Notes under the pieces: model-generated
Databases searched by the model: none
Told to the model about the DNA's origin: nothing
What the model saw: the letters and a program-made list of their open reading frames with translations, nothing else
Shown here: in pieces, positions 45,001-61,657 of the stretch
How the letters are laid out: every line of letters starts with the position of its first letter
How positions within the stretch are numbered: the first letter of the stretch is position 1
Position numbers and translations under genes: made by a program
Assembly (NCBI GenBank): GCA_902500205.1
Contig: GCA_902500205.1_4868.1
DNA length: 64,000 nucleotides
Source of the DNA: Escherichia coli
Lineage (GTDB): Bacteria > Pseudomonadota > Gammaproteobacteria > Enterobacterales > Enterobacteriaceae
Reading direction: 5' to 3' (one strand)

Positions 45001-45117
45001 TCCTTTTCTTTTTTGTTTGCTCTTGTTCGGATTCTGGTACGCTCTACGCTTTTAATATGCTGGCAGGAGGTCTAAAAATCTTACGACCTCAATAATCCCT
45101 TAACTCGAGTTAACGCG

Positions 45118-45915
45118 ATGTCTTTTACTTCAAAACAGAATCTGCTAAAACTCATCAACGAAGAGAATAAGATAAGCCCACCGCTTACCTTTGACGATGT
45201 TGATATCGGACTGCCGGAGGTTGTGTCAGTAGACGGTCGTGATTCGGAGGTAGTCCTTACCTCGAAGATGCGCGGTGATGAAGGTACGCAAGTGATTGTG
45301 GACTACCATCGTCGTCCATTAGAGGACTACCTTAAAGGCGATGTTGCCTTTGGAGACGAGGACGTGCAAACCACGCACGACTTACTCGCGGCGATTAACG
45401 AGCGTTTTAATCTGTCTATCTTACCTGAGGATATCGAAGATAACCCCATTGATGGACAGACGCACACAGTCGTTGCTGTTGAAACTTCCCACGAGTGGCG
45501 AAGTCAAGCGGTCATCGAGCTGAAACCTGCTACACCTCTGGCAGAAGTAATAACCAATACAGAGTTGAGCGGTCTTCTGTACCCGGATCACCAGGACATC
45601 CAGTTGGGTCAGGCGTATATCTATTCGCGCGACATCGATTGTAGCCACATCTCTCGTTTCCTGAGCCTCTTAGCGGTCGGTATCGAAGTAGATGACACGG
45701 CGTTAGCAATCGAACTCAACAAATGTGTTCCTGAGATTTGGGTGGCTGAAGATACCCCATCCCCGTATAACTTGCGTGGTGCTACTGTCGTATTCGACGG
45801 CGTACCTGCAGACTTACCGGGAGCAAATACGGCGTTCGCGAAAGTCGTGTCAGTGCAACTGACCGATAAATGTACGAACTTCCAGGGCACCCTCAACTTA
45901 CACTTTAACAACTAG
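45118..45915 (+). CDS. Fibre-like paralog 1 (virion appendage family; function inferred)
   Basis: Shares the family N-terminal signature (about 80 aa, '...RNT...YYDR.NL...') and C-terminal '...L.LHFNN'. Confidence 0.8.
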   Translation: MSFTSKQNLLKLINEENKISPPLTFDDVDIGLPEVVSVDGRDSEVVLTSKMRGDEGTQVIVDYHRRPLEDYLKGDVAFGDEDVQTTHDLLAAINERFNLSILPEDIEDNPIDGQTHTVVAVETSHEWRSQAVIELKPATPLAEVITNTELSGLLYPDHQDIQLGQAYIYSRDIDCSHISRFLSLLAVGIEVDDTALAIELNKCVPEIWVAEDTPSPYNLRGATVVFDGVPADLPGANTAFAKVVSVQLTDKCTNFQGTLNLHFNN

Positions 45916-45925
45916 GAGGGTATAG

Positions 45926-46768
45926 GTGTCTATTTACGATAAGCCCTCGAAAGAGATGTTGTTAGATGCTATTAACCGACAGAACGGATTAACGGCCAAT
46001 CCACTCACATGGGAGCAGGTTGCAACTGGCTTCCCTGAGTCTGTCCAAACGCCTGGCGCTGACCGGAATACGCGTGTGCTCTTATACGGGTTGAACGGCA
46101 AGGGCTACAAAGGCAACGTTACGCTCGAATACGACCGTATCGAAATGGAAATTCTGTTCAGGAACGTAATACCGGTAGTCGTTGCCGACCCGGTAAATAA
46201 ACTCTCTGAGTTGTTGCCGTTTCTGAATGCGAAATACGGCTTGTCTTTAGTTGCCGACGATATCGTTGACCAGTCAGTAAAAGATTTGGGAGAAAGCTGG
46301 TTAATCGATGTGACTATTAAGCCCGGTTGCTTGGCCTGGCAAGGTGGTTTCCGTTTACGCTTTGCGAAGTTCTTCCCGAACTTGGCGGATGTGGTGACGG
46401 ATGTTGACCTCAGCGCAATTATCGCGCCGTTCGTGGTTGCTAGTAAACCACAGGCCGAGTATGTGGCGTATGGTTACGATTGGACTGAACTGCAAAAACA
46501 GTTCACCACCGATTGGGTTTACAACCGTGCAATCACTGCAGCGGATGTTGAGTTGTTGAATGAAGTGGTGCCATTAAAGTTTGCATATGTGACGGGGGCG
46601 AATGCGCAACCTGAACAAATTGCACTCCAAGGTGCACGATTTATGGGGATAACTTCAGTCACACCGAACGATAGTTACAACCCCGATTATCAGCGTGTGG
46701 CGATTATCAAGCTAGCTGCGGACAGCAACTACGCCGGTAATCTCATCCTTCATTATCTCCCGATATAA
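45926..46768 (+). CDS. Fibre-like paralog 2
   Basis: 'aggagg' SD before GTG; 'DRNTRVLLYGLNGKGYKGNVTLEYDRIEM'. Confidence 0.8.
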   Translation: MSIYDKPSKEMLLDAINRQNGLTANPLTWEQVATGFPESVQTPGADRNTRVLLYGLNGKGYKGNVTLEYDRIEMEILFRNVIPVVVADPVNKLSELLPFLNAKYGLSLVADDIVDQSVKDLGESWLIDVTIKPGCLAWQGGFRLRFAKFFPNLADVVTDVDLSAIIAPFVVASKPQAEYVAYGYDWTELQKQFTTDWVYNRAITAADVELLNEVVPLKFAYVTGANAQPEQIALQGARFMGITSVTPNDSYNPDYQRVAIIKLAADSNYAGNLILHYLPI

Positions 46769-46778
46769 GGATTTTGAC

Positions 46779-47624
46779 ATGCCACTTTTAGCCACAGCTG
46801 TAAAGATTATTATCGCGGAGGTTAACGTCGAAAACAATCTCGATTTAAAAGTCGAGGATGTTGTTTTTGGTGTCCCTGCGATTCCAACGTCTGACGAAGA
46901 CTTGGCAAAAGCTAACGGTCACAACGCGATGGTGCGCATTCAGGCATTGGCCACGGCTAATGCTATCGGTGCCACTACCGTCTATTACGATCGTGTTGAC
47001 TTCGCAGACATGTTTACCGATCCGGACGGGATTCAACCTTTACGTGTTCCTGCGCGTCTCGATGCTGTTTACCAGATGCATGACGTGGTCGGGTTAATTA
47101 ACCAGTATTACGGTCTCAGCCTTAAACCTGCAGATGTGGTGAATACCGAAATCGACAGGAAGACATGGCGTGTGGATCTGATTGCCACGCCCACTTCCTT
47201 AGGTTGGATAGGGCAACAACAGGTACAGCTGTTACCAGGCGATGCGTTGCTTCCTGCAAACTTCGAACCGTTAACAGTGATGCCTTACGAGTATCCGTAT
47301 TTCAACATCAAGGTCGGTCAAGGTGCAGTTTATTCGTATCCCTGGCGCTTTGATAATTTCGCGGAGGAATTTCAACGACTAGGTGCTGCGATAACCACAG
47401 AACGTCTGGCACAGATTCTCAAAACGGTCACCGGTGATAACTGGACAACATACCGTAACCCTATCGACTTTAACCTTCGTGAAGCCGTCGTCGTCTATAA
47501 CGGGCGTAACAAAGCGGAATTACCAACCAACCCAGCAGTCGACAACGTGCTGATTGTGGAGCTGTCGTTGTACTGTCTGAATTTTGGCGGGCGTTTGTAT
47601 TTGCATTACAACGACCCTGATTAA
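46779..47624 (+). CDS. Fibre-like paralog 3
   Basis: 'TTVYYDRVDFADMF' and C-terminal 'LYLHYNDPD'. Confidence 0.8.
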   Translation: MPLLATAVKIIIAEVNVENNLDLKVEDVVFGVPAIPTSDEDLAKANGHNAMVRIQALATANAIGATTVYYDRVDFADMFTDPDGIQPLRVPARLDAVYQMHDVVGLINQYYGLSLKPADVVNTEIDRKTWRVDLIATPTSLGWIGQQQVQLLPGDALLPANFEPLTVMPYEYPYFNIKVGQGAVYSYPWRFDNFAEEFQRLGAAITTERLAQILKTVTGDNWTTYRNPIDFNLREAVVVYNGRNKAELPTNPAVDNVLIVELSLYCLNFGGRLYLHYNDPD

Positions 47625-47645
47625 TCCTGAGTAAAGGAAGTAAGA

Positions 47646-48557
47646 ATGAAACCTTTAAACAAAACGTCCGATAAGCTGGTTCTGGATTTTATTAATGAGA
47701 AAAACCCAGACGCAGAACTGGAACTTTCTAAAATAACGCTCGGCACACCGACCCCTATTAGCGATGAAGGTGCTGATCGCAATACCAGCATGACCCTGAC
47801 TGCGAAAAAGAACTCCGGGTACATCGGTACTCAGGACGTGACTTATAATCGCCTGGAAGGCGGTGCGCTGTTCCGTAATGTAACAGCATACCTCGACGTT
47901 AAACTGCCGAAAACCACCACAGACCTGCTGACGACCCTGAACACCCAATACGGATTGAAGCTGACCGAAGACGATATCGTTCCGGCGGCTATTCCGGAAA
48001 ATACCAACCCGCCGCTGACTAACCCGAACGATCCGGACCCAGCACCGGTTGACCATGTCATTACCTTCAAAGAAGACTGCTACGCTTATCTGGGCAGCAT
48101 CCCGGTTAAAATCGGTGCTAAGCCTCAGGTTGGTGAACGTCTGAGTCTGGTGGTAACACAAACCAAGCTCGACGGCCTGGTTTACCCAGATGGTCCAAGC
48201 GAAGCGAAGGGTCAGGGCTACATCTACTCTTACGGTGTAGACTGCACAGCAATCGCAGCATTCCTGAAAGTACAGGCGAAAGGTGTTATCGCTGGCGACT
48301 CTGCATTCCCGGTTGAGCTGAATAAAGTTGTGCCGGAACTGTGGGTTGCATCTGATGAGCCTGCGGATTATAACCTGAAAGGCGCTAACGTGTTGTATGT
48401 TGGTTCTACTGCTGACGATGGCACTGCTTCAGGCGACGAACCTAAGAAACCGGTTGAAGGTGCAAACACTGCTTACAACCAGGTTCTGCTGCTGCAGCTG
48501 GATGACACTCTGTGCACCAACTTCCAGGGCATCATGTACCTGCACTTTAATGCCTAA
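47646..48557 (+). CDS. Fibre-like paralog 4 (codon-optimised, probably the most abundant member)
   Basis: Family motifs plus host-optimised codons (runs of CTG, CCG, GGT). Confidence 0.85.
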   Translation: MKPLNKTSDKLVLDFINEKNPDAELELSKITLGTPTPISDEGADRNTSMTLTAKKNSGYIGTQDVTYNRLEGGALFRNVTAYLDVKLPKTTTDLLTTLNTQYGLKLTEDDIVPAAIPENTNPPLTNPNDPDPAPVDHVITFKEDCYAYLGSIPVKIGAKPQVGERLSLVVTQTKLDGLVYPDGPSEAKGQGYIYSYGVDCTAIAAFLKVQAKGVIAGDSAFPVELNKVVPELWVASDEPADYNLKGANVLYVGSTADDGTASGDEPKKPVEGANTAYNQVLLLQLDDTLCTNFQGIMYLHFNA

Positions 48558-48570
48558 TTAGGCCTCGCTG

Positions 48571-48610
48571 GGAGGAGGAAATCCTCCTCCTGGCTACTCC
48601 TTTCTTTTTT
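48571..48610 (+). terminator. Hairpin with distal T-tract (weak internal terminator)
   Basis: 'ggaggagg-aaat-cctcctcc' then 'tggctactcctttcttttttgg'. Confidence 0.45.
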
Positions 48611-48626
48611 GGCCGAGGAGGCTATT

Positions 48627-49466
48627 ATGGCTTTATATAGTCTGTCTCAGCGACAATATCTGTACGATGCGATTAATGCCGAAAACCCGGATGCTGTTCT
48701 ACCGATGGGTTTAGACAATGCTATCATCGGTACGCCGAAAGCAATCACACCGACAGCAAGCGGTGCCAACACCGAGATTATCATTCGTGGTCGTCAAGGT
48801 CGTGGCTATATCGGTCCTCAGACGTTCCGTTATAAGCGCTTGTCGCTGAACGACTTATTTAAGAACATGACACCTCAGGTAACTGCACCGAATGCCTACG
48901 GTTGGTTGAACGTGGAGTCGAAACGTACTGCGTTTGCGCAGAACCTGAACGGTCGTTATGGATTAAACCTGGTTGCAGACGATATCCCAGAACAATACGT
49001 TTATCTGAACGTAAACAACACGATGCGTATTAACGCTAGCTGTATCCAATACACTGGCAGCATCACCTTTATGTCTATCCGGGGTAAGAATAGCCTCGAA
49101 GACCTCGTGGTAAACGACATCTTGTTGGCTTTGAACCACCCTGCAGCAGCAAGCACTGGTAAGAAATACATGGGCTTCTTGACGTACGGGGAAGACTTTA
49201 CCGATGAAGTGCAGGTTATGGCCTCGTTTAAGAACGGGCGAATGGATGTAGGAAGTAACTTTGATTTGGGTTACACGTCCAATCTGATGGCCACATTGGT
49301 CGCACGTGGGGTACCGTCGTTTGATCCGACGAACTGCACAATTACCCGCTACAAAACGAGTGAGTTGGCGACCGCCAATAAAGCGTACGATAACGTATTG
49401 CTGATTACCGGCATTCAGAACGACCCGAAAGTAATCGGCGAGTGTATGTTGCACTACAACAACTAG
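48627..49466 (+). CDS. Fibre-like paralog 5
   Basis: 'gaggagg' SD before ATG 48627; C-terminal 'CMLHYNN'. Confidence 0.8.
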   Translation: MALYSLSQRQYLYDAINAENPDAVLPMGLDNAIIGTPKAITPTASGANTEIIIRGRQGRGYIGPQTFRYKRLSLNDLFKNMTPQVTAPNAYGWLNVESKRTAFAQNLNGRYGLNLVADDIPEQYVYLNVNNTMRINASCIQYTGSITFMSIRGKNSLEDLVVNDILLALNHPAAASTGKKYMGFLTYGEDFTDEVQVMASFKNGRMDVGSNFDLGYTSNLMATLVARGVPSFDPTNCTITRYKTSELATANKAYDNVLLITGIQNDPKVIGECMLHYNN

Positions 49467-49476
49467 GAATTAGCGA

Positions 49477-50364
49477 ATGGCTATTTATCAACCTTCTAAA
49501 GACGTCCTGTTGGCAGCAGTGAACGCACAGAACTCGCTTGCTGTTAAGATGACTGACATCATCTGGTCCACGCCAAAGGACATCCGTGGTACGGAGAAGG
49601 AAACGCTGACTAACCGTAACACGCAAATTAAAATTACGGCAGATGGGGTAACGGGCTCTACCTGGTCGGGTAAGAAAAATGTCTTCTACAACCGCATGAA
49701 AGTCGAAGACTTGTTAGTGCTGATCGGTGACACGTTGGCGATCGGCCCATCCAACGAAACCTTGTATGCGGCCATTCCTGGACTGAACCAACGTTACGGT
49801 TTTGTTCTGGAAGAAGCTGACCTGCAGGACGCAGATATCGAGTGGAACGGTGATAAGACCGAAGGAACTGTGCGCGTTGTTGCACATCCAGAGTCTATCG
49901 GTTGGGTTGGACAGGCGACATTTAAAGTCGTGAAAGGTGATGAGTCGTTAGTCTCTGCAGTCACCACTAACGTCCTGACCGGTCTGAAATACCCGAACGG
50001 TCAGATGGGTTCCGAAACCGTTACTGCGGTCATTGCAGAGGTTTATTCCTACCCGTACAACTTCACTAAGTACCGAGATGCTCTGCTGGCATACAAGCCG
50101 GGTATTCTGTCTGGACAGCCGTTAACGGATATGGTTAACCTGCTGAAAGATATTACGGGTACTGCATGGGTAGCGACCACTTCCGCTTCCTACGGTTTGG
50201 CGGGCGCGGAGGTTATCAGCGTTGGTCTGAATGACCCTGTTGCAATGCCGACAAACGCGAAGTACAAGTATGCGCTGGTGTTGAAACTGCCTGTTACCTG
50301 TACCACCATCGTCGGAACGTTGTATCTCCAGTTCAACGATCTGGACGATCCAAGCGAGGTATAA
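49477..50364 (+). CDS. Fibre-like paralog 6
   Basis: Family N-terminal motif; C-terminal 'LYLQFNDLDDPSEV'. Confidence 0.8.
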   Translation: MAIYQPSKDVLLAAVNAQNSLAVKMTDIIWSTPKDIRGTEKETLTNRNTQIKITADGVTGSTWSGKKNVFYNRMKVEDLLVLIGDTLAIGPSNETLYAAIPGLNQRYGFVLEEADLQDADIEWNGDKTEGTVRVVAHPESIGWVGQATFKVVKGDESLVSAVTTNVLTGLKYPNGQMGSETVTAVIAEVYSYPYNFTKYRDALLAYKPGILSGQPLTDMVNLLKDITGTAWVATTSASYGLAGAEVISVGLNDPVAMPTNAKYKYALVLKLPVTCTTIVGTLYLQFNDLDDPSEV

Positions 50365-50367
50365 TTG

Positions 50368-51195
50368 ATGATCAACTATGCTAAGCCGTCAAACGAGTTG
50401 GTCTTTGACCTCATTAACCGGGATAACCCAAACCTACCTATTAAAGCGTCGCCGGCAAACTGCTACGTGGAGAAAGTGACACAGGTTCCCGTTAATGCAG
50501 CTTCCAACAACCGCAATACGTCGGCACGCTTGCGCGGTATTCAGGGTTCCGGATTTCGAGACGCAATCACCGTTTATTACGACCGTGTGAACTTAGCGCG
50601 GTTATTGCCGTGGGGTCCTTCTGTCCAGGCGCAGTTCGTCACGTTTGACGCTCCCAACCTCCACTCAGCCTTTTCGGTGCTCTTGGATACTTACGGAGTA
50701 AACTTCTCTGCAATCGATATCTATAACCTCCCACTGGCGGGCCCCAATACCCCAAATTACACCAATACACAGAACATCGTAGCGCTATCGACATCTCCGG
50801 CTTATATCGGTTCTGCGACGTTGCGTTATAACCGTGGTTTACCGGTACTAGACACTTCGGTGAAATCGGATGTCTTGAATGCGATTCAAGAGCCTATCTC
50901 GCCGTCTCTCGGTAAGAAGTGTATTGATTTGTTGACGTACGGTATTGACTTTACCGCGTATAAAAACCTACTGACAGTAGATGCTTCTGGCCTACCGCAG
51001 TGGGCTGGTTTGCGTAAGGTGTTGGATGACCTGGGTATTCCGAACTACGCGGGGCCACTGAACAGTAACACCGTTCAGGATGTGCCGACTTCCACCGCTC
51101 AGTTCGCTAACAAATCGTACGACCGCGTGGTTATCCAAACGGGCATCGATGAGGAAGGCGTGAAAGGCGTGGCGTACTACCACTATAACAGCTAA
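50368..51195 (+). CDS. Fibre-like paralog 7
   Basis: 'NRNTSARLRGIQGSGFRDAITVYYDRVNLARLL'; C-terminal 'AYYHYNS'. Confidence 0.8.
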   Translation: MINYAKPSNELVFDLINRDNPNLPIKASPANCYVEKVTQVPVNAASNNRNTSARLRGIQGSGFRDAITVYYDRVNLARLLPWGPSVQAQFVTFDAPNLHSAFSVLLDTYGVNFSAIDIYNLPLAGPNTPNYTNTQNIVALSTSPAYIGSATLRYNRGLPVLDTSVKSDVLNAIQEPISPSLGKKCIDLLTYGIDFTAYKNLLTVDASGLPQWAGLRKVLDDLGIPNYAGPLNSNTVQDVPTSTAQFANKSYDRVVIQTGIDEEGVKGVAYYHYNS

Positions 51196-51200
51196 GTGTA

Positions 51201-51227
51201 GGGGCTCTTCGGAGCCCCCTCTTTTGG
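51201..51227 (+). terminator. Hairpin with short T-tract (weak internal terminator)
   Basis: 'ggggctc-ttcg-gagcccc' followed by 'ctcttttgg'. Confidence 0.5.
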
Positions 51228-51242
51228 CGATGCGGAGTCCCT

Positions 51243-52655
51243 ATGCTATTTTACTCGAAGGAGTCGGCACTGCTTGTATACGACCAAGTCAATCGGGATA
51301 ACCCTGATTTAGTTGTTAAGCTGACGCCGGCTATCGCTGCTTTAACCGGCGGCCCAACTTCAGTTACGTTAAACCAACGTAACACCAAAGCTGTTTTCAC
51401 CGGGTATCCAGGGACAGGTGTACAAGGTAATGTTACCGTGTACTACGACCGGATTAACCTGGCCACTTTATTTAATTTTGTGCCGACTGTGGCTATCAAA
51501 GATACAGTCTTAACGGTACGAGACGCGCTACCTGCAATAAACGACGCATTGGGGCTTACATTAGTTGCTTCTGATTTGCAGTCACCTGACGCAAGTTTAC
51601 CTAAACCGAGCGCTTCGCCGCAGACGTTGAAATTAAATATCTCAGGTAATTGCCCTGCGTTTACAGGCAGCTTAACGATACGTTATACCGTCCCGAGCGG
51701 TGCAATTTACCCCGATTCTGGACCTGGCCCTAAAACGTTGCTGCAAGGTAACACTATCGCGGGTTATTTCGGAACAACCACAATTGCAGAGTTGTTTACA
51801 CACTCTCAACTTCTTAATGCCACTATATCGGCCGGTGCGTTACCACCGGTACATTCTGGTGCCGAAGGTTGGTACAAGTTCTTTTACCAGGGTAGGGTTA
51901 TTTACCTCCCGATCAGTCCTGTCGCTAGCTCCATCTCCTGGAATACGTTATATACAAACGGACTCGTTTACGGAACAGATGATAATGGTAAATACCCTGC
52001 GGCGACGCCCGTTAACCAGGGACGCATCATTAGCTTTACAGGCGCAGACAACAAAAGGTTTTACTTCCGCGTTCGTCTACCTAGTGCTGGGAAGGACCCA
52101 TACGTCAGCGGCACCCCAACTGCCGCTGAGTTAGCAGGTAGTGAGTTTGAGATGTTCAACTTTCTGTATAATGGAACGTGGGACAAACCGATTAACAGTT
52201 ACTGGACGCTGTTCTGTTTATTGAAAGATACACTGAAGACCAACGTCGCCTATCATCGCATGGCGACGTTGTCTGGAGCCAGTTGGACAAACTTAGGAAA
52301 ATCATCGAGCGCAGGCAACTACTACTGGTTCCCGGTGCTGGAGTTGGTGGATAAATCCACAGTTACCTTGGGTTTAGAAGATATCCATGGTGCGGTAGAT
52401 TACAGTCTCCAACCGTGCAGCGTGTCCGCAGAAAACACGTTTAGTCTCAAGCCGTTGGTGCTCGGTAATCCAGATACTACCGATTTCGAACCGGTAGTTG
52501 TTACTTCAGAAAACAGTTTCGCACTGCATCCGCCTGCTTTAATGCTGCCGAAGACAGTCGATTTCCAACCTATTGCGGCTACCGCTGAAATGTATACGCC
52601 CCCTGACAAGACAACGTTAACGTCTCTTAACGGTGAACTGGACGGCTTTAAGTAG
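51243..52655 (+). CDS. Cassette gene A1: long fibre-like protein
   Basis: Family N-domain, 'YPDSGPGPKTLLQGNTIAGYFG', C-terminal repeats ending 'LNGELDGFK'. Confidence 0.85.
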   Translation: MLFYSKESALLVYDQVNRDNPDLVVKLTPAIAALTGGPTSVTLNQRNTKAVFTGYPGTGVQGNVTVYYDRINLATLFNFVPTVAIKDTVLTVRDALPAINDALGLTLVASDLQSPDASLPKPSASPQTLKLNISGNCPAFTGSLTIRYTVPSGAIYPDSGPGPKTLLQGNTIAGYFGTTTIAELFTHSQLLNATISAGALPPVHSGAEGWYKFFYQGRVIYLPISPVASSISWNTLYTNGLVYGTDDNGKYPAATPVNQGRIISFTGADNKRFYFRVRLPSAGKDPYVSGTPTAAELAGSEFEMFNFLYNGTWDKPINSYWTLFCLLKDTLKTNVAYHRMATLSGASWTNLGKSSSAGNYYWFPVLELVDKSTVTLGLEDIHGAVDYSLQPCSVSAENTFSLKPLVLGNPDTTDFEPVVVTSENSFALHPPALMLPKTVDFQPIAATAEMYTPPDKTTLTSLNGELDGFK

Positions 52656-52666
52656 AGGTATCATCT

Positions 52667-53665
52667 ATGTCTTTTACTTTGCGTTGGAAAAATCCAAACG
52701 TAATCCCTACGGTAGTAAAAATCTACCGTGACGTTAAAGATATCACACCAAGCGCTTTGCCTGAACCGATTGCAACGCTCTCAAATGGCGAGACAGAATG
52801 GCGTGATGCCACCGCCAAACCAGGCGCAATCTATTATTACCTTCTAACGGTAACCGCCAACGGTAAAACAGTGGCATCGTCTAGCCAGAAATACACCATT
52901 GAGATAAAGCGTGGGATTGGCCCAATGACTATTCTAAACGGTAACGACCGTTTAGGGTTTATGGGTGCGGTTCCTTACGACGAACAATGGCTTCCGTCGC
53001 AAATGCCACCTGCATTTTTGGCGATGTTCCCTAATCTATTAACCGATCGTGTGGCGTTGTATAAATTTACCCGAAACGGGAAAATCTATTACATGCTATC
53101 TAATACGTCGCAGTTCCCGAATACGCCTGTGGACTGGGCTTCCCTCTATCAAGCCGGTTTAGTCTATGGTACAGGCGATGCTGGCCCAGAGAACGGCCAT
53201 GGAACGCTACCAGACACTCCACAAGACGCTAAGATAGTCCACAAAGGGGATACGTACATTATGCGGCTTCCTCGCGGCCTGACGATGTCTAGCGAGCCTC
53301 CTGCGTATCCTTTCGTAGCTGACTATAATGGGAAAACCCATGATGAAATCGCTTCTCTAACCAACCCGTGTGAGTATAACGATTTACTTTACACGATGGT
53401 TAACGAGGTGCCGTGGAAACAGCGTTGGGCTAACTGGGCAACGAACAGTTATACTTTTCTGGGGCAGGGTACTTTGGGAACCTTGGCAGCGTATTTCGGC
53501 GGTGGTGTTCTCTGTATGGAACACGACACCGCGGAAGACCGTGTGCTCCATCGTGGTATCTTTAACAATGCCGGTGGAACACCCGTATCAGCGATTCAGC
53601 GTATAAACTATTTATCACCCACCACGAAAGGGCGTTACTACCCTATCTTTGAACTGGTCGAGTAA
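52667..53665 (+). CDS. Cassette gene B1: fibronectin-III-like N-terminus plus shared C-domain
   Basis: Paralog of 56121-57107 ('...FTLRWKNPN...IYRD...NGETEW...YYY...'). Confidence 0.85.
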   Translation: MSFTLRWKNPNVIPTVVKIYRDVKDITPSALPEPIATLSNGETEWRDATAKPGAIYYYLLTVTANGKTVASSSQKYTIEIKRGIGPMTILNGNDRLGFMGAVPYDEQWLPSQMPPAFLAMFPNLLTDRVALYKFTRNGKIYYMLSNTSQFPNTPVDWASLYQAGLVYGTGDAGPENGHGTLPDTPQDAKIVHKGDTYIMRLPRGLTMSSEPPAYPFVADYNGKTHDEIASLTNPCEYNDLLYTMVNEVPWKQRWANWATNSYTFLGQGTLGTLAAYFGGGVLCMEHDTAEDRVLHRGIFNNAGGTPVSAIQRINYLSPTTKGRYYPIFELVE

Positions 53666-53674
53666 GGGGCAGTC

Positions 53675-54598
53675 ATGACTATACGGTTAAGCTGGCCGTC
53701 CCAAGCCAGCAAAGGTCTTACCGCGATTGAAATCTACCGCAAGGAAGGTTGGAACGCAACAATCGACGTTTACAATCCAGGCACACCCCACGCAACTTTA
53801 TCAGGCAACGCGGTAGAGTTCGTAGATAATATCGATACCCTGACGAAGAATACAACCTATCGTTATTGGGTAGCTGCTGTGAAGGACAGTGAACGACTTA
53901 TCGGCAATCCGATTACGCAAGGATTCTATCCGGACACCGGGCCGGGTCCGCAAACAATCCTGCGCGGTGACTGGGCTTCAGGTTATTTCGGTACAGTACC
54001 GAATACAGAGTTCTTTAATACTGCCGAGTTAAAACTCATGTTAACTGCGCAGCAGGGAAACATGTTTGTCTACGACCCTCAGGAATGGCACAAGTTTATT
54101 TTCCGTGGGAGAATTGTCTTCTTCCCAGCGACGATGCATTCGAAAACCAACTCGGTACAAATGGCGTATCAGTACGGTATGATGTACGGGACCGATGATG
54201 TCGGAAGTATTGTTCCGCAGGGAGCCACGGCGACTAAACAAGATTGTAAGGTCACGAAGGATGGTCGTACGTACCGTATCCGATTACCTTACGCAGTCCC
54301 GTACGACGCTGTTCTCTCAGGACAGGATTACAACAACGGTGAATGGCGAAACACAATGGGCCGTTTGTATCCTGTCGGTGCAGAGTTCGCAGCCCTCGGT
54401 CTTGGTGCGATTGACTCACTTGCAAGACAAGGCGCGACTGCGCAGCCGAATGAGTCAGGTGCCGCTGTATTAGCTCCTTTGTGGAGCAACAACATATTCG
54501 CTTATGCGTATGGCACCGTGCCTATGGGGATTAGTAACACCGCAGGTGTCGGGAACTCGGCCACGATATTCTTTGCTTTCGAATTAGTCTTACCGTAA
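53675..54598 (+). CDS. Cassette gene C1: FN3-like N-terminus plus GPGP domain
   Basis: Paralog of 57110-58009 ('YPDTGPGPQTILRGDWASGYFGTV'). Confidence 0.85.
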   Translation: MTIRLSWPSQASKGLTAIEIYRKEGWNATIDVYNPGTPHATLSGNAVEFVDNIDTLTKNTTYRYWVAAVKDSERLIGNPITQGFYPDTGPGPQTILRGDWASGYFGTVPNTEFFNTAELKLMLTAQQGNMFVYDPQEWHKFIFRGRIVFFPATMHSKTNSVQMAYQYGMMYGTDDVGSIVPQGATATKQDCKVTKDGRTYRIRLPYAVPYDAVLSGQDYNNGEWRNTMGRLYPVGAEFAALGLGAIDSLARQGATAQPNESGAAVLAPLWSNNIFAYAYGTVPMGISNTAGVGNSATIFFAFELVLP

Positions 54599-54611
54599 CG
54601 GAGTAAAAGCC

Positions 54612-56108
54612 ATGGGGTTGTATACAGAACCTTCAATGGAACTGCTCTGCCAACAAATTGTGCGTGACAATCCCGGTTTAGCAGGAAAAATCACCGCTGA
54701 CTCCGTTGGGGTCAGGGGTGTTCCTGTTGCGAGAAACGTTAACGGACGAAACACACAGATTACGTTGGTAGGAAAACCTGGTAAAGGATTTGCTGGGGAA
54801 ATAACGGTATATTACGACCGGTTGAATCTGGCCAGTCTGTTCAAGTCTGGCCCGAATATGGTGAGTATTCCACGTAGCGCACAAACCCATGCGGAAGCGT
54901 TACCGGCGTTCAATGAATTGAACGGGTTGAACTTAACCGCGAGTGACATCACCAGTCCAAACGTTGCATTAATGAAATACGCTACGCCGGAAACTATAAC
55001 TCTGACGGCGCACGCTAACTCCTTGTGCTATACCGGGTCATGCAAGATGACCTATGTTTACGAACCGATTGCGATGTATCCGAAGTCGGGCCCTGGGCCA
55101 AAAGGATTAATGGCCGGTAATGAGTTATACGGATTCTTTGGGCTGGTAAGCGCGGAAGAGTTATTCACATCTGATGAAATGGTGTATGCCCTCTATAACG
55201 GCACCAACTGGCCTAACCGCTACGCTATCAAGTGGCTCAAATTCTTTCTGAATGGGGCGGTAGTGTTTGTTCCGACCCGTGCGATTTGCAACGTTACCTG
55301 GGCAGACCTGTACAACAAGGGTGCAATATTTGATTCCGGAGACGCAGGACCTCGCCCGAAGTCGACTTACACACCTGTCGATGTTGAACAGTTGAAATAC
55401 ATGGTAAAACGGGATGATGAAGGAACGCATTATTTCAGAATGTCTATCCCGTATTACACCGAGAACGCCGCCGCGCCTGATTGGAGTAAACCGCCGTCAA
55501 TCACCTCTATCCTGTCACTGACCAGCAAATTGGGGTCGGTGAACGTATATGGGGAATGGGGAACTCTTAGCACGACTGATGCTAACTTCCTGGATTCCGT
55601 GTGGTTACGACACCAGTTCGGTGCCGACCAAGCGTATTACCAGTCTATCAGTGGGAGCTATCGTTCATACACCTACATCTACACCTCTTCTGGCTTTTGG
55701 CCAATCCTGGAGATGTTTGATGTTGCCAATGAACCTGTGCCGTTGATTGACGAAGGTGCAGAACTAACATGGGCACCGTCCGTGGTTACTCTGACGGACA
55801 TCGACCAAAATGAATCGCTTCGTGTGGTGCCTATTACGGAAACCTCCGCTGCAGCGAATCCACGTCCGTTAGTTTTCAACACCGACAACACCGAAACTGC
55901 CACCCCTGCCTGGGTGCGGGAAGCGTCATCAGACTCACCACGTCCTCTGCTTGCCACGACGGACAATGATGAACGTGCATATTCCGTCGCGGTAACAGGC
56001 ATGGCTAGCGTTAAGATTAGACCGATTATTCTCACGACTGACCAAATCGCCCAACCTTCAAAAATTACTCTGGGCGATACTAACGGTGAGTTGGATGGAT
56101 TCCAATAA
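54612..56108 (+). CDS. Cassette gene A2: long fibre-like protein
   Basis: Paralog of A1; 'YPKSGPGPKGLMAGNELYGFFG'; ends 'TNGELDGFQ'. Confidence 0.85.
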   Translation: MGLYTEPSMELLCQQIVRDNPGLAGKITADSVGVRGVPVARNVNGRNTQITLVGKPGKGFAGEITVYYDRLNLASLFKSGPNMVSIPRSAQTHAEALPAFNELNGLNLTASDITSPNVALMKYATPETITLTAHANSLCYTGSCKMTYVYEPIAMYPKSGPGPKGLMAGNELYGFFGLVSAEELFTSDEMVYALYNGTNWPNRYAIKWLKFFLNGAVVFVPTRAICNVTWADLYNKGAIFDSGDAGPRPKSTYTPVDVEQLKYMVKRDDEGTHYFRMSIPYYTENAAAPDWSKPPSITSILSLTSKLGSVNVYGEWGTLSTTDANFLDSVWLRHQFGADQAYYQSISGSYRSYTYIYTSSGFWPILEMFDVANEPVPLIDEGAELTWAPSVVTLTDIDQNESLRVVPITETSAAANPRPLVFNTDNTETATPAWVREASSDSPRPLLATTDNDERAYSVAVTGMASVKIRPIILTTDQIAQPSKITLGDTNGELDGFQ

Positions 56109-56120
56109 GAGGTAACGACA

Positions 56121-57107
56121 ATGGCTTTTACAATTCGTTGGACGAACAATAACCCTGGGGCTTCGACCGTGAAGCTGTACCGCGACACCAAACCTCTGGT
56201 GCGTACGGCATTACCTGAACCTCTGGCAACGTTCACTAACGGGGAAACTGAGTATACTGACCGAACAGCGATACTGGGGACAACGTATTACTACATGACC
56301 ACTGTGACAGTGGGAAGCCGAACACTGTTCAGTCCGCAGAAATCAATTCTGATTCAGAACCGTCGCGGTATCGGCATCGTGACTCCACAGTACGGTGATG
56401 ACCGCTTTGCGTATTACGGGTATGTGGCGTACGGTGAATTGCCTAGCGCGGCTGATTATCCGCCAGGGTTTGTGGCCATTTCTGGATATGACCCAACTGT
56501 TAAGCCGGGCTTGATTAAGTTCCAGCTAGACGGTAAAATTCTGTATCTGTTTAGTGGTCTTCGTGTGAACGGCAACACGCTGTATAGCCGTGATGCGATT
56601 TATAACGCGGGTTTGCTGTACGGTGTGGAGGGACCTGGTCCGGAAGGCGGTCATGGTGATTTACCTGACGTTGACCAGGCTGGGGAGTTTACGTGGTTGG
56701 GTGACCGCTATCGGATGCGCCTGCTGCGCGGGTTAACGCTCGACAGTGAAAGCCCGGTCATGACACTCGACGCACAGTGGAACGGTAAACTCCATGACGC
56801 GTCACCGTATACTGCCGATAGCGAATACAACCGACTCATCTATGGGATAAGTAGCTGGTTCCCAGAAAAGAAAAAAGTGATGTCCCTGATAAAGTGGTCG
56901 AACACCAGCATATTCGGAAGTGGATCGCTGGTGGCAGGCCGTGGGGCGCATTGTCAGGAGTTTGACCCAGACAGTAAGTTGGGGCTGACGCGCGGATGGG
57001 CGGCGGCGGATTCCACTGATACCGTGGATAACCTCCAGCGTATACAACATGTCCCTGCGACCGTGGGCGGTATTTGGATTCCAGTAATCGAGCTTATCGA
57101 GGATTAA
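56121..57107 (+). CDS. Cassette gene B2
   Basis: Paralog of B1. Confidence 0.85.
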   Translation: MAFTIRWTNNNPGASTVKLYRDTKPLVRTALPEPLATFTNGETEYTDRTAILGTTYYYMTTVTVGSRTLFSPQKSILIQNRRGIGIVTPQYGDDRFAYYGYVAYGELPSAADYPPGFVAISGYDPTVKPGLIKFQLDGKILYLFSGLRVNGNTLYSRDAIYNAGLLYGVEGPGPEGGHGDLPDVDQAGEFTWLGDRYRMRLLRGLTLDSESPVMTLDAQWNGKLHDASPYTADSEYNRLIYGISSWFPEKKKVMSLIKWSNTSIFGSGSLVAGRGAHCQEFDPDSKLGLTRGWAAADSTDTVDNLQRIQHVPATVGGIWIPVIELIED

Positions 57108-57109
57108 TC

Positions 57110-58009
57110 ATGCCTATTACATTAAACTTTGCACAACGGAAGCCACAGGCGCTCGATAACATTGAAATCTATCGCAAGACGCCGGGCAACGCCACCATTG
57201 ATGTTAATGCACCGGGAACGCCTCTGGCAACCCTTCCGGGTGACGCTACATCGTACGAAGACAACGCTGTGGAAAACAACACCACTTACCGTTATTGGAT
57301 AGCTGCGGTTAAAGACGGTGAGCGTGTCTTCAACACCCCTACCGCCCAAGGGTTCTTTTTAGACACCGGGCCTGGCCCCCAGAAACTGTTATACGGCGAC
57401 TGGCACGCCGGATACTTTGGAACAGTAACGCCAGCAGAGTTATTCACTAACGCGGAACTGAACAGCCTCGTGGTGAATATGTTCAGTTCCGCCGTTGGTG
57501 CCTGGCATAAGTTCATTTACAAAAACCGTATTCTGTTTATGTCCGATAACTCGATAATATACGCTAGCCCGCAGTTCATTTATAACCAGGGGCTGATGTA
57601 CGGCCAGGATGGCAACGGATATGTGCCGAGCTGGGCTAGTGCACGTAACCAACGCCGCACGGTGACGAAAAACGGTTACGAATACGTGGTGCGCTTGCCG
57701 TATTTGTTCGACTACAAATACTGGACGTCTTTCGTTGGAAGCGGTAACACCGAGTTGTATCTCGACGGTGAGTGGTTTAACACCTTCGCGCGCCTGTACA
57801 ACTACAGTGGGCAGTTTCCGCGCTTTGACGACATTCCGGTCGGTCCAATCGATTCGGTTACTGCCCAACAATCTGCATTCTTTGCGGCTATGAATAACTT
57901 GTCCGCTCAGTGGTACAACCGTCCACCCTACCCAGAGTCGCCGTCATGGGGTAACTACGGTACCGATACAATACGCTCTATTGCGGTACTTGAACTCGTT
58001 CTGCCTTAA
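57110..58009 (+). CDS. Cassette gene C2
   Basis: Paralog of C1; ATG 57110 after 'gagga' (track start 57074). Confidence 0.8.
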   Translation: MPITLNFAQRKPQALDNIEIYRKTPGNATIDVNAPGTPLATLPGDATSYEDNAVENNTTYRYWIAAVKDGERVFNTPTAQGFFLDTGPGPQKLLYGDWHAGYFGTVTPAELFTNAELNSLVVNMFSSAVGAWHKFIYKNRILFMSDNSIIYASPQFIYNQGLMYGQDGNGYVPSWASARNQRRTVTKNGYEYVVRLPYLFDYKYWTSFVGSGNTELYLDGEWFNTFARLYNYSGQFPRFDDIPVGPIDSVTAQQSAFFAAMNNLSAQWYNRPPYPESPSWGNYGTDTIRSIAVLELVLP

Positions 58010-58020
58010 CAGGAGACTTC

Positions 58021-58056
58021 ATGGGATTGTATAGCGCACTTTACCATAACAGCTAA
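58021..58056 (+). pseudogene. Vestigial 5' stub of an A-type cassette gene (11 codons)
   Basis: 'aggagacttcATGGGATTGTATAGC...' mirrors the A2 start 'ATGGGGTTGTATAC...' (both MGLY...); runs into TAA after 11 codons, directly before a terminator. Confidence 0.5.
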
Positions 58057-58088
58057 AAATAGGCCCTTCGGGGCCTATTTTCTTTTTT
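58057..58088 (+). terminator. Intrinsic terminator (TTCG loop)
   Basis: 'aaataggccc-ttcg-gggcctattt' followed by 'tcttttttag'. Confidence 0.85.
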
Positions 58089-58099
58089 AGGACGTTGCA

Positions 58100-59419
58100 A
58101 TGATCAACTATAACAAACCTGTCATGCAACTGGTTTGGGATCAGATTAATCGTGATAACCCGCAGCTCAAGAAACCGCTCAACGCAACCAACGTGGCGTT
58201 ATTACAAGGTCCTTTAACCAATGCCTTGCGCGATGGTCGCAACAGCCGTATCGTGGTAAACGGATTACAGGGTGGTGGTTACAGCGGTAAGATGGACATC
58301 TACTACGACCGCTTAAACCTTTCGCAGTATTTTAAAGGCGTCAGCGTACCGGTTAAAGTACCTTATCGGGCGACGGTCTACCGCGACATCATCGATCGGA
58401 TTTCCGCAGCTTGTGGGTTGGTGCTTACTGCTGACGATTTAACGTATCCTGACAGCCAGTTTGCAATGATCACTGTGGCAACGGGCGATCGGACGGTGGC
58501 GATTAAATCGGATAACCCCGCATTCACGGGTTATATTCCTATTAGCTTTATTCGTGAAGAGCCCAGCTTTGCCGACTTGTACCACACCACCGAAACCGGA
58601 GCTTGGGAACCCATGGATGTTTACAGCACGGTCTATCGACTCGACTGGAGCATGTACACTCAACAGATAATCAATATCCCAATGGGTACCCCGCTGCGAC
58701 TAAACAGTAACTCGTACATGACCCAGTTCATCGCGGCGCTGTCGGCATGGTCGGGCATCCCGTTCACTATCGGTAATGCTGCTACTGATAACCCGTATGA
58801 CCTCTATGGGTATGTCGCTACACGCAATAACAACCCAGGCTTAGACCCTGATATGCGTGGGGAGTACAAATACTGCGTGAAGTTGACGCCACCTGAGGAT
58901 ATGGGTAATCTCCGCCGTCCGTTCTTCTTGCACTTTGGTCCGAAAAATAACGTGGCCTATTTGGCGCAGGAAGAGGACGTCGAGCGTTATGCGCGTTACA
59001 TGAGTTTCCGGGAAACCAGCCCAAATTCGATGAGCGTCACGTTGTATCAAAACGAGTACGTGTTGACTCGGGCAGAATCGCCTGAAACAGCGGATGATTT
59101 AACGGGTTCCCCGTATGGCACTCGATACTGTACCGGGAGTATTCGACGGCTGATGCAACACGCGTTTCCGACCGAAGAGATGTTCCAAGAAAGTATTGCT
59201 AACCGACGTCGGGTACTGTACCACACTGCTTACACCACCACGACATCAGCTATTACTTACCAGGGATTATACCGTAACGGATACCAATCCAAACAAATGA
59301 CGAGCCTCTACTCGAATTACTGTAACTATTTCATCTATTACGACCCAAGCAAAGGCGGCTATATGGTCTACAGTCCATATAGCAAAACCGCCCCGGTCCC
59401 TTGGTATCCACCGCTATAG
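58100..59419 (+). CDS. Fibre-like protein (439 aa) with family N-domain and distinct C-terminus
   Basis: 'GRNSRIVVNGLQGGGYSGKMDIYYDRLNLSQYF'; C-terminal 'YSPYSKTAPVPWYPPL'. Confidence 0.85.
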   Translation: MINYNKPVMQLVWDQINRDNPQLKKPLNATNVALLQGPLTNALRDGRNSRIVVNGLQGGGYSGKMDIYYDRLNLSQYFKGVSVPVKVPYRATVYRDIIDRISAACGLVLTADDLTYPDSQFAMITVATGDRTVAIKSDNPAFTGYIPISFIREEPSFADLYHTTETGAWEPMDVYSTVYRLDWSMYTQQIINIPMGTPLRLNSNSYMTQFIAALSAWSGIPFTIGNAATDNPYDLYGYVATRNNNPGLDPDMRGEYKYCVKLTPPEDMGNLRRPFFLHFGPKNNVAYLAQEEDVERYARYMSFRETSPNSMSVTLYQNEYVLTRAESPETADDLTGSPYGTRYCTGSIRRLMQHAFPTEEMFQESIANRRRVLYHTAYTTTTSAITYQGLYRNGYQSKQMTSLYSNYCNYFIYYDPSKGGYMVYSPYSKTAPVPWYPPL

Positions 59420-59433
59420 ACTAAGGTGCCACC

Positions 59434-61611
59434 ATGTCCTACACTCCTGATTTAGTGGCGACCGTGATTCGGTCGCTCAACCGTAAAAACGCGGTCGCCA
59501 GAGCAGTAGACCCCGCTAACGTACGCCTGGTGTCCGTGGCGCATCGTGACGAAAAAACCCTAGACGTCACACTGACAGGGGGTCCGGGGTATTCTAGTTA
59601 CGGTCAAATTACGGCCCAGGTCACGAAGCAAAATATTGCTGATTATTTCGCTAAGGTTAAGTTGGATGCCATTCCCACTTGTGCGTCCATCCACGAACTG
59701 TTGCCACATTTAGACACTCTACTAGGGATTACCTTTTTAACCGACGACTTTGAAGACCTGCCCATCACTTGGACAAACAATGCTGCGCGCATCACGTTCC
59801 AGGCGAAACAGACAAGTCTTATCTGGTACGGCAGCCAAACGCTAGATGTGATAAACGGTGACGTGGATATCAACACTGTCTACACTGTTACCAATATCAT
59901 TTTCACGCTAAAGGCTGCGAATAAACAGCAGTGGATTAACTTCTACTCTAATGCAGCCAAACGGATCGTGGATCTTGATAAAGTCGATGTCAGCGCCCCG
60001 ATGTCCCCGGAGGATATAGGCCAAACCTCTGCGTATAACAGCGTCGTAGCTTTGACCGCTAGACCGGGGAGCGGGATGTTTGGAACGAAGTATGTGTTCT
60101 TCTCACGTAACAAACTCGAGACATATGCAGGCAAAACCACATACGTCCCGGACGATTTCACCGGTAGCCTGCATGATGCTCTGGCCATCGAGACACTCGG
60201 CATTCGGAGTGTTTTTGATGTAAACGAAATTGCTCCTGTAGAGAACCTGACAGGCGAGTGGCCGAGACAAGTGCAATTGGCACCCGTAGAGGGTTCGTAC
60301 AAAGTCATGGGCAGCGCCACGTTGAATGTGGCACGCTATCAAGATAACGAGCAAACCCTTAACCTGAACTACACAACTACGTCGCAACTTTCGGACAGCT
60401 ACTGGGCCACAACGTTGATCAACCATGCGGCCTGCGGGCGTTTGTTTGTTAACGTGACCGTAGATGCGGGGGCTTTCGTTTATCGCGACAGCAACCTGAA
60501 ACCGACGTTCGTTATCGACGAATTGCCGCAAATTGGCGAGGTGGTTTGGAACTTCGTTAACCGGGGAACCATTCTTGGTCGTGGTGGTTCGGGTGTGGTC
60601 TACTCTATGCCTGCGAACACATCAGCGGACGGAGCTGACGCAATCCACATTAGCGATACCTTCCGTGGCAAAGTCACCATCGAAAACTACGGCACCATCG
60701 CCGGTGGTGGGGGTGGGGGCGACTACTATGCGTTTAGCACCACCAAGATCGGTGGAGCTGGTGGTGCGCCTCTCGGGCCAGGCGCGGCGGTGCCCAGCGA
60801 CACCAATAACCGTAACGGCTTAGCTGGGTCCCGTGACAAAGGCGGTGCTACCCAGTTAGTCGTCGCGCAATTTACCGGCTACCAGAGTCGCTACTATGGC
60901 GGTCCGGGTGGGGATTGGGGCCAGCCGGGACGTTATACAGCGTTCGAGCAATGGAACACCCCGGCTACCGGCTCGCCGGTCTATGTCTACGGTCGTGAAG
61001 ACGGGATGTCATGGACTCGCCCTGGGATGGCAGGCGAAGCCGTCGGTGGGAATAAAAGTATCGTCAACTGGGTATCCGTCGGAACGGTGAAACCGAATGT
61101 CACCGACGAGTACCAAGAGTTCCTCGACTACCTCGCAGATTTAGATGCCAACCGACTGGCTAGTGCGGATGGGATAGATAAAGTCACCGACCCAACCAAA
61201 CCTGTAGTTGTGGAGTTCTTAGGTACGATTATTTCAGGTACGCTGTTCAAAAAGCAAAACATACCCGGCGGTTTGGTGGGAACACCATACGGCGATGCTG
61301 TAGCCAACTTACCAGCCACCACATTGTTTGGTATCATGGCACACTGTGTATCGGAGTTTGATATTGTGCACGACACTTGGCGTTACAACCGCGCGGTAAT
61401 GTTCACGCTAAAACCCGCACCTACCGGGGCGATTAGCCTCGCTGTGGAACGCAACCGGGTGAAATCGGCTACCAGTAGTGCACCGGTGGAGAAGTTCTAC
61501 GTCGATCGCTTCGTGTATTACGATGCGTATCTCGGTAAAATGATGGAATGTAATCCGTATACCAAATCTGCCCCTAAACCGTGGGTGCGGCCAACGATAC
61601 CGTTATCGTAA
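59434..61611 (+). CDS. Large fibre-like protein (725 aa) with Gly-rich segment
   Basis: Family-like N-terminus; 'GGGGGGDYYAFSTTKIGGAGGAPLGPGAAVPS'; C-terminal 'NPYTKSAPKPWVRPTIPLS' echoes the previous gene. Confidence 0.85.
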   Translation: MSYTPDLVATVIRSLNRKNAVARAVDPANVRLVSVAHRDEKTLDVTLTGGPGYSSYGQITAQVTKQNIADYFAKVKLDAIPTCASIHELLPHLDTLLGITFLTDDFEDLPITWTNNAARITFQAKQTSLIWYGSQTLDVINGDVDINTVYTVTNIIFTLKAANKQQWINFYSNAAKRIVDLDKVDVSAPMSPEDIGQTSAYNSVVALTARPGSGMFGTKYVFFSRNKLETYAGKTTYVPDDFTGSLHDALAIETLGIRSVFDVNEIAPVENLTGEWPRQVQLAPVEGSYKVMGSATLNVARYQDNEQTLNLNYTTTSQLSDSYWATTLINHAACGRLFVNVTVDAGAFVYRDSNLKPTFVIDELPQIGEVVWNFVNRGTILGRGGSGVVYSMPANTSADGADAIHISDTFRGKVTIENYGTIAGGGGGGDYYAFSTTKIGGAGGAPLGPGAAVPSDTNNRNGLAGSRDKGGATQLVVAQFTGYQSRYYGGPGGDWGQPGRYTAFEQWNTPATGSPVYVYGREDGMSWTRPGMAGEAVGGNKSIVNWVSVGTVKPNVTDEYQEFLDYLADLDANRLASADGIDKVTDPTKPVVVEFLGTIISGTLFKKQNIPGGLVGTPYGDAVANLPATTLFGIMAHCVSEFDIVHDTWRYNRAVMFTLKPAPTGAISLAVERNRVKSATSSAPVEKFYVDRFVYYDAYLGKMMECNPYTKSAPKPWVRPTIPLS

Positions 61612-61614
61612 TTT

Positions 61615-61644: not shown

Positions 61645-61657
61645 AGATAAACCATGC

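Follow-up and report, generated by a model that had tools for sequence, protein, structure and literature searches.

What roughly twenty co-resident paralogues do in the virions of giant phages has been a question since 2016, and two structural studies of 2026 now address it. In Salmonella phage SPN3US, the genes were defined as 'paralog family B', and every member was found in tailless particles (Thomas et al. 2016; Ali et al. 2017). A preprint on phage Goslar (April 2026, bioRxiv 10.64898/2026.04.21.720040) presented DUF7941 as a chimallivirus-specific family and showed by negative stain that purified gp22 forms filaments in vitro, while AlphaFold3 predicted head-to-tail DUF7941 dimers and oligomers; gp23, which consists of N-domain and linker only, was the most abundant DUF7941 member. 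Its authors proposed a 'fibre cloud' on the peripheral baseplate, with this anchoring regarded as universal, and the SPN3US data are unmentioned there. In the phiKZ atlas (Nat Commun 2026, PMC13250141), one gp127 sits on each baseplate lobe, at the end of the gp139-dimer band. Here, we analysed a stretch of 64,000 nucleotides (nt) from the Escherichia coli assembly GCA_902500205.1 (contig GCA_902500205.1_4868.1), hereafter the window, in which positions 45118-61611 carry an array of such genes.

We identify the array as the DUF7941, or 'paralog family B', virion protein set of Seoulvirus (SPN3US type). The feature as such is already known, with the same genes, the same family, published proteomics and an existing Pfam entry, while the three-block anatomy, the lectin-like cassettes, the gp38-like domain of g15, the ELDGF motif and the conservation gradient described below are new here. 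With a probability of roughly 0.55, we read the array as encoding head-to-tail heteropolymer filaments with binding modules for host capture.

Identity and Membership of the Array

The 16.5-kb interval is filled by 15 paralogous open reading frames (ORFs), g01-g15, all on the + strand and separated by gaps of 2-90 nt (Table 1), as the preliminary description had reported. Over its full length, the window shows 98% DNA identity to both SPN3US (Seoulvirus) and the E. coli phage vB_EcoM_EC001, and it is collinear with SPN3US 115393-135346, with 97-99% amino acid (aa) identity per gene (98.5% between g01 and gp138). Its source is a chimallivirus, that is, a phiKZ-like nucleus-forming jumbo phage, as indicated by this 98% identity to Seoulvirus and by a wedge gene homologous to phiKZ gp128. 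The SPN3US family B (gp83, gp138-154, gp160/161 and gp237) comprises the same genes as the array; gp155, the orthologue of g15, is unlisted there despite having the N-domain.

The N-terminal module corresponds to Pfam PF25613 (DUF7941), which was matched by 11 of the 15 ORFs (g01-g08, g11, g14 and g15) at 85-292 bits, with a gathering cut-off of 27 bits. The seven proteins g01-g07 (265-303 aa) match the entire profile of 276 positions (E 1e-68 to 1e-87), and g08, g11, g14 and g15 match its N-terminal half, approximately positions 1-170 (E 1e-24 to 1e-31); g14 also matches phrog_1037 over residues 1-287, which corresponds to a full DUF7941. An N-domain common to all 15 genes had been proposed, which holds for these 11 but not for the four genes g09, g10, g12 and g13 in the 53 kb-58 kb part. 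These four have no PF25613 match and open with FN3; a domain of ~220 aa, here called the X domain, which also occupies the middle part of g08 and g11, is their only tie to family B (BLASTP). As they interrupt the series, the eleven N-domain genes are not consecutive, and the module itself measures ~150 aa (hidden Markov model (HMM) positions 1-152) instead of the ~80 aa first given.

The motifs INxxNP, RNT, GxGYxG, YYDRxNL and LF that were first noticed are visible in the alignments. A merely compositional similarity is ruled out, because the array proteins show 20-43% identity in all-versus-all BLASTP with E down to 1e-62 (22-42% and E 1e-8 to 1e-62 among the eleven N-domain proteins), besides the PF25613 scores; judged from their sequences, all array genes are homologous. 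Eight short members had been credited with a common C-terminal ending. It is present, as LH(Y/F)N within 12 residues of the end, in the seven proteins of 265-303 aa, while the eighth case is internal, namely FLHFG at about residue 285 of the 439-aa g14. Likewise, the C-terminal parts of the short proteins, which had been regarded as divergent, are instead the conserved C-terminal half of DUF7941 (matches to 1-276 of 276). The view that the family is unusually large is shared by Thomas et al.

Between 44900 and 61700, no DNA repeat exceeded 46 nt or 79% identity. The array paralogues are therefore old, and a recent tandem duplication is ruled out. The array-derived HMMs found two more N-domain genes in the window, both above the Pfam cut-off (Table 1). 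When the N-domain alignment profile was run against a set of 5.8 billion proteins, matches were obtained only in Seoulvirus, Erskinevirus and CR5-type relatives.

Association with Virions and Tailless Heads

All 18 SPN3US orthologues (gp138-gp155) were detected in CsCl-purified virions by mass spectrometry (PMC10052503 Table S2), which supports the predicted virion association. The 2023 data set (Scheuch/Weintraub et al., PMC10052503) compares wild-type virions with heads of a tail-tube amber mutant by normalised peptide-spectrum matches (PSM). The head/wild-type ratios of gp138-155 range from 0.89 to 1.67, and that of the major capsid protein is 1.39, whereas those of sheath, tube, baseplate and fibre proteins are below 0.07 (PMC10052503). 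Since the orthologues keep their ratios in tailless heads, they are virion proteins but not classical tail fibres in the SPN3US lineage, contrary to the fibre status first suggested for the array. Apart from the Gp38 domain of g15, no tail-fibre Pfam family was matched among the array genes. The most abundant array member is gp141, the orthologue of g04, with 2239 PSM in virions and 2297 in tailless heads (PMC10052503); in SPN3US mass spectrometry, gp82 was assigned to the tail and gp83 to the head.

After length normalisation, the published PSMs correspond, as a crude estimate, to ~1,900 family subunits per SPN3US virion. Equally crude numbers for the classes are ~850 full-length, ~640 N-domain plus linker, ~107 N-domain plus X and ~249 FN3 plus X subunits, which gives a ratio of the last two of roughly 1:2, with ~20:20:27 for the three proteins of cassette 1. 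These values would fit a 1:1:1 complex for each cassette and about eight chain subunits for every adhesin-bearing one.

Domain Anatomy of the Array

Three blocks with three architectures follow one another: seven full-length genes, two cassettes of the order N-domain+X, FN3+X, FN3+X, and finally g14 with g15. They are bracketed by terminator-like hairpins (Table 1), which suggests separate transcription units or attenuation points. GC-rich hairpins with a TTCG or similar tetraloop and a T-run occur on the + strand at 44971-44986, 51201-51218, 58056-58081 and 61658-61679, all as consensus matches only.

Table 1. Position and content of the array genes, of the outlying family members and of further features in the window.
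Feature	Position	Strand	Length (aa)	SPN3US orthologue	Content
g01	45118..45915	+	265	gp138	Full-length DUF7941 (N-domain, linker, C-domain); PF25613 E 3e-68, positions 5-276
g02	45926..46768	+	280	gp139	Full-length DUF7941; PF25613 E 1e-70; GTG start, agreeing with EC001 and SPFM13 annotation
g03	46779..47624	+	281	gp140	Full-length DUF7941; PF25613 E 1e-78
g04	47646..48557	+	303	gp141	Full-length DUF7941; PF25613 E 2e-84; linker LVVTQTKLDGLVYP
g05	48627..49466	+	279	gp142	Full-length DUF7941; PF25613 E 2e-79; ATG start as in EC001 and SPN3US annotation, alternative start TTG 48609 possible
g06	49477..50364	+	295	gp143	Full-length DUF7941; PF25613 E 3e-82
g07	50368..51195	+	275	gp144	Full-length DUF7941; PF25613 E 6e-87
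g08	51243..52655	+	470	gp145	N-domain 1-150 (PF25613 E 3e-31), X domain ~155-375 (X-domain HMM E 3e-61), extended tail to NGELDGFK
g09	52667..53665	+	332	gp146	FN3, then X domain; phrog_1062
g10	53675..54598	+	307	gp147	FN3 (1-85), then X domain (86-307), predicted C-type-lectin-like
g11	54612..56108	+	498	gp148	Opens second cassette; N-domain, X domain, tail to NGELDGFQ
g12	56121..57107	+	328	gp149	FN3, then X domain
g13	57110..58009	+	299	gp150	FN3, then X domain; 43% identity to g10
g14	58100..59419	+	439	gp154	Full DUF7941 (1-287) and C-terminal domain of ~125 aa common to g15
g15	59434..61611	+	725	gp155	Two N-domain-like modules (4-146, 176-304), Gp38-like adhesin ~346-553, C-terminal domain as in g14
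Hairpin	51201..51218	+			Terminator-like, GC, TTCG loop; between g07 and cassette block; consensus scan only
Hairpin	58056..58081	+			Terminator-like, then T-run; between cassette block and g14; consensus scan only
Deletion scar	58021..58039	+		gp151	First 19 nt (ATGGGATTGTATAGCGCAC) of the gp151 orthologue remain
Outlying DUF7941 gene	12532..13059	+	175	gp83	N-domain and linker only, ends ...LVTKRALDGFRPGEFLNG; 48.9 bits, HMM E 8e-9
Outlying DUF7941 gene	35093..35626	+	177	gp122 (probable)	N-domain only; 65.8 bits, HMM E 1.6e-16

The X domain carries the cassettes. The AlphaFold2 model of g10 has a predicted local distance difference test (pLDDT) score of 92.6, and its X domain (pLDDT 94) resembles a C-type-lectin-like fold, a moderate but coherent signal. 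No Pfam model covers the X domain, of which 53930-54598 is an example copy. An exhaustive profile search found it in 1,735 clusters at 50% identity (1,058 at E<=1e-10), most of which repeat the FN3+X or N-domain+X layouts, while some proteins are giant, with up to nine copies, and fused with Laminin_G_3, Kelch, Big_6/Big_13, discoidin or DUF285. From the company it keeps with surface adhesins, it appears to be a widespread extracellular-type domain. The FN3 domain of g09 was recognised by a profile match to 3mpc, and BLASTP gave 39% identity between g09 and g12 and ~30% to g08 and g10. Six FN3+X orthologues are labelled 'glycosyl hydrolase' in records MT679221 (Proteus phage 7) and OQ383623, the label being given in the Proteus phage 7 and MET_P1 records. 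It is not supported for these genes, which have no Pfam match, show no sign of a catalytic domain and resemble carbohydrate-active enzymes only in the FN3 module (pectate lyase PelI, CtXyl5A); the label probably stems from this module, which is common in carbohydrate-active enzymes.

C-type-lectin-fold receptor binders are known from Bordetella phage Mtd, Treponema TvpA, the Bdellovibrio fibre tip Bd2740 and the C-domain of Legionella Lcl, none of which has detectable sequence similarity to the X domain. The array has no retroelement, and a diversity-generating retroelement (DGR) acting on the lectin-like domains is ruled out, as no template/variable repeat pair was found in 44900-61700. Moreover, each cassette has three distinct paralogues, whereas one gene gives a homotrimer in the known binders.

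The last block differs from both others. Beyond its PF25613 match (E 8e-24; second N-module with an independent E-value of 6.6e-5), g15 matches PF05268, the glycine-rich adhesin Gp38 of T-even phages, over profile positions 51-214 (E 1.5e-18, 67.9 bits versus a cut-off of 25), and phmmer matched it to S16 gp38 (6f45_D, E 0.0025). Residues ~346-553 thus correspond to the glycine-rich receptor-recognition part of Gp38 (S16 gp38, PDB 6f45), whereas its gp37-attachment part (positions 1-50) is unmatched; DUF7941 modules stand in its place, and an extra C-terminal domain follows. With 725 aa versus ~250 aa for Gp38, g15 is a relative of the Gp38 domain only and not a member of the family. The C-terminal domain common to g14 (58997-59419) and g15 (61100-61611) has ~110-125 aa, as seen by BLASTP of g14 334-438 with g15 614-720 and by phrog_6409 over g14 312-436, and had no match among Pfam or solved structures; both proteins end ...SKxAPxPW.... 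A host-binding-type domain in a subset of the array, as had been surmised, is thus borne out by the gp38-like adhesin, the FN3 and the C-type-lectin-like domain.

A Candidate Donor Motif

A conserved 'ELDGF' motif lies at or close to the C-terminus of those family members in which the C-terminal globular domain is missing. The last residues are ...NGELDGFK in g08 and ...NGELDGFQ in g11, and similarly ...NGELNGF in SPN3US gp151 and ...NGELDGFV in SPN3US gp160. An NGEL[DNST]GF end is found in all N-domain+X proteins and in the small N-domain-only proteins of SPN3US and phiEaH2; in the latter, three N-domain+X proteins and two small N-domain proteins have ends of this type. The motif is rare: six-frame ORFs with a total of 51,000 aa contain just five copies of [LMIV]DGF, four of which stand no more than 12 residues from the C-terminal end of a virion protein. 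A similar motif stands in the linker of the full-length members (consensus VT..LDG(L/F); see g04 in Table 1). In the gp83 orthologue, the PF25613 match (positions 4-170) reaches into the linker part, and LDGF is invariant across 13 orthologue clusters. From this pattern, we infer that the LDG(L/F)/ELDGF segment is a candidate donor that would dock on the next N-domain. The conserved linker and ELDGF motifs would agree with a head-to-tail assembly of the kind on record for Goslar gp22.

The protein of 35093-35626 (+) is without an LDGF ending. At 10329-12524 (+), directly 5' of the gp83 orthologue, lies a gene for a 731-aa protein that is homologous to gp128 of the phiKZ baseplate wedge (PDB 9xqs_C, E 2e-84) and has the LDGF-like ending ...RDMDGFRLDQLPK; the arrangement parallels the adjacency of gp126, gp127 and gp128 in the phiKZ and Goslar papers.

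A Filament Model and Its Competitors

The favoured reading combines these elements. Subunits would join head-to-tail into thin, flexible heteropolymers, in which the ~150-aa N-domain would serve as acceptor and the donor would be a C-terminal ELxGF peptide or else the linker (VT..LDG(L/F)) of another subunit together with its C-domain. The g01-g07 proteins, together with small N-domain+linker proteins encoded elsewhere, would be the chain-building subunits. Each cassette would supply one N-domain-anchored and two FN3-fused X domains, probably as a 1:1:1 binding head, while g14 and g15 would contribute one more domain and an adhesin of the gp38 type. The filaments probably serve for low-affinity, multivalent capture of host surface structures, with a putative role in adsorption and host range. 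Because the orthologues keep a capsid-like stoichiometry in tailless heads, the filaments of the SPN3US lineage are probably anchored on the head (capsid) or neck rather than solely on the baseplate, the site proposed for Goslar and phiKZ.

Goslar gp22 and gp23 belong to the same Pfam family as the array proteins and have the same N-domain/linker/C-domain architecture, and both phages have abundant full-length and abundant N-domain+linker-only members, with a minority fused to binding domains. However, the ten Goslar members are scattered and fused to carbohydrate-binding, glycoside hydrolase or leucine-rich-repeat domains, whereas the array forms one cluster fused to C-type-lectin-like X and gp38-like domains, plus the FN3+X genes. 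The Goslar members were also proposed to be anchored to the baseplate, in contrast to the SPN3US orthologues, which purify together with tailless heads. Similarly, the array profile matches phiKZ gp127 (PDB 9xqd; E 1.8e-24), whose C-terminal ...LIHYN ending is part of the match, but phiKZ has only 2-3 members (gp126/gp127) with no cassette or adhesin fusion.

Several observations weigh against the filament model. The family members gp237 (head/wild-type ratio 0.06) and gp122 behave as tail-associated proteins (PMC10052503); gp122 gave 22 PSM when virions were complete and none in tailless heads (PMC10052503); it was classed as non-virion, yet it looks like a low-copy tail-associated member. 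As a measure of copy number, spectral counts are crude. No filament has been reported on SPN3US-type heads, for which the literature on head hairs or fibres gave nothing usable, and the 30-Å capsid map of SPN3US shows only a small protrusion per hexamer. Finally, two experimental lines conflict on the location, with the baseplate observed for phiKZ and proposed for Goslar and the head indicated for SPN3US (PMC10052503, PMC13250141, 10.64898/2026.04.21.720040). The tail-associated gp237 and gp122, together with the position of phiKZ gp127, suggest that the chains may have more than one starting site.

The presence of all array orthologues in tailless heads at the relative level of the capsid protein (PMC10052503) could also mean that they are internal head or ejection proteins, packaged with the DNA inside the capsid for injection into the host. 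For gp141 and gp143, the SPN3US group gave the tentative label 'Head ejection?' (Ali et al. 2017, Table 1), and the SPN3US head holds large amounts of unassigned internal protein. We nevertheless consider this unlikely, since FN3, C-type-lectin-like and gp38 adhesin domains are typical of extracellular binding proteins, phiKZ gp127 is external (PMC13250141) and Goslar gp22 makes long filaments (10.64898/2026.04.21.720040). In addition, the SPN3US head proteins that the prohead protease cleaves include no family member, and no array gene matched PF12699, the inner-body/ejection family of Pfam.

The preliminary description had proposed a repertoire of alternative fibres with a common virion anchor and a broad or switchable specificity, which can be cast as eleven or more tail fibres, each anchored independently to the baseplate by the N-domain and each with its own distal receptor-binding domain. 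Such a reading could draw on the contact between the phiKZ gp127 N-domain and the outermost gp139 dimer of the baseplate periphery, on the extra C-terminal domains of four array members and on the baseplate anchoring proposed by the Goslar authors (10.64898/2026.04.21.720040). It is improbable because 7 of the 11 proteins have nothing distal beyond the conserved DUF7941 C-domain (a variable distal domain is missing in 7-8), and the SPN3US orthologues are retained in particles that have neither tails nor baseplates. One gp127 per phiKZ lobe, compared with ~1,900 SPN3US subunits (a rough estimate), also misfits an anchoring of one subunit per site. As for switching, no machinery or repeat structure was found in 44900-61700, be it invertible segments, DGR-type repeat pairs or recent duplications, so that this part of the proposal was dropped. 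The published model makes the N-domain an acceptor for the linker and C-domain of the next subunit rather than a simple virion anchor, and therefore speaks for one heteropolymer system and not for eleven alternative fibres.

Equally improbable are Hoc-like decoration or cement proteins outside the shell, serving stability or environmental adherence without filaments: co-purification with heads, the unassigned Hoc-like central protrusion on SPN3US hexamers (~260 copies) and FN3/Ig-like domains, which are typical of Hoc-type proteins, would fit them, but the high-resolution phiKZ and Goslar capsids give the decoration, latch and vertex sites to families other than DUF7941, twenty different paralogues at very different abundances misfit a regular lattice site, and Goslar gp22 polymerises on its own.

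Within the filament model, a bolder version can be put forward only tentatively. The Seoulvirus array may build a novel adhesion organelle of hundreds of bead-on-a-string heteropolymer filaments on the capsid or neck instead of the baseplate, joined by donor peptides and carrying heterotrimeric lectin-like heads. Its three-gene cassettes might be gained, lost or swapped as a unit, and its chain starts might be set by the donor peptide on a gp82-type wedge and by small adaptor paralogues.

Cassette Loss, Conservation and Neighbouring Genes

According to blastn, the array equals the 18 SPN3US genes gp138-gp155 minus the third cassette, gp151-153 (SPN3US 128318-131764). As the start of gp151 is kept (Table 1), the loss is a derived deletion of one three-gene cassette; the blastn alignments flanking it overlap by 9 nt at the junction. 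The shorter two-cassette arrangement is also found in E. coli phages EC001 and Lh1B, and Salmonella phages SPLA3 and SPLA5c likewise show shorter array matches. Cassette copy number thus differs between 98%-identical phages. A tie between cassette loss and an E. coli host is not claimed, as there are only two related E. coli phages and the Salmonella phages SPLA3 and SPLA5c are shorter too.

Conservation falls along the array. The identity of g01-g07 is 58-80% to phiEaH2 and 84-91% to SPAsTU, and that of cassette 1 (g08-g10) is 45-54% and 70-76%, respectively, while cassette 2 (g11-g13) has no clear orthologue in either phage. Both g14 and g15 are absent from phiEaH2; in SPAsTU, the record of which holds part of the array, g15 has no match and g14 a partial one only (38.8% identity over 33% of its length). 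On these comparisons, chain-type genes appear conserved across genera, whereas those that bear adhesins have diverged or given way to others.

Directly upstream of the seven full-length genes, Erwinia phage phiEaH2 has a gene annotated as 'EPS depolymerase' (L003 3513-5330); it was considered as a further DUF7941 fusion and discarded, as no DUF7941 N-domain was found in it. The phiEaH2 array runs straight into a lysozyme gene (L003 21815 onward), with the equivalents of g14 and g15 missing. In the window, the array is directly followed at 61690-62307 (+) by an endolysin gene (GH108 and PG_binding_3). Next come a gene at 62596-63237 (+) for a DUF1353 protein, which RefSeq names 'tail assembly chaperone' and which SPN3US mass spectrometry counts as non-virion, and one at 63247-63762 (+) whose product has a weak Peptidase_M15-like match.

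Implications

The locus sharpens the conflict between a head location, from SPN3US mass spectrometry, and a baseplate location, observed for phiKZ and proposed for Goslar. Its anatomy separates chain-extending subunits from those with binding domains, and it offers a candidate docking peptide and a candidate heterotrimeric lectin-like head. Near-identical phages with two or three cassettes and different isolation hosts form a natural pair for comparison. The X domain is of interest in its own right, as an apparently extracellular-type domain of 1,735 clusters outside the Pfam models. If it is true that the filaments mediate adsorption, they would open a way to engineer which hosts therapeutic jumbo phages infect.

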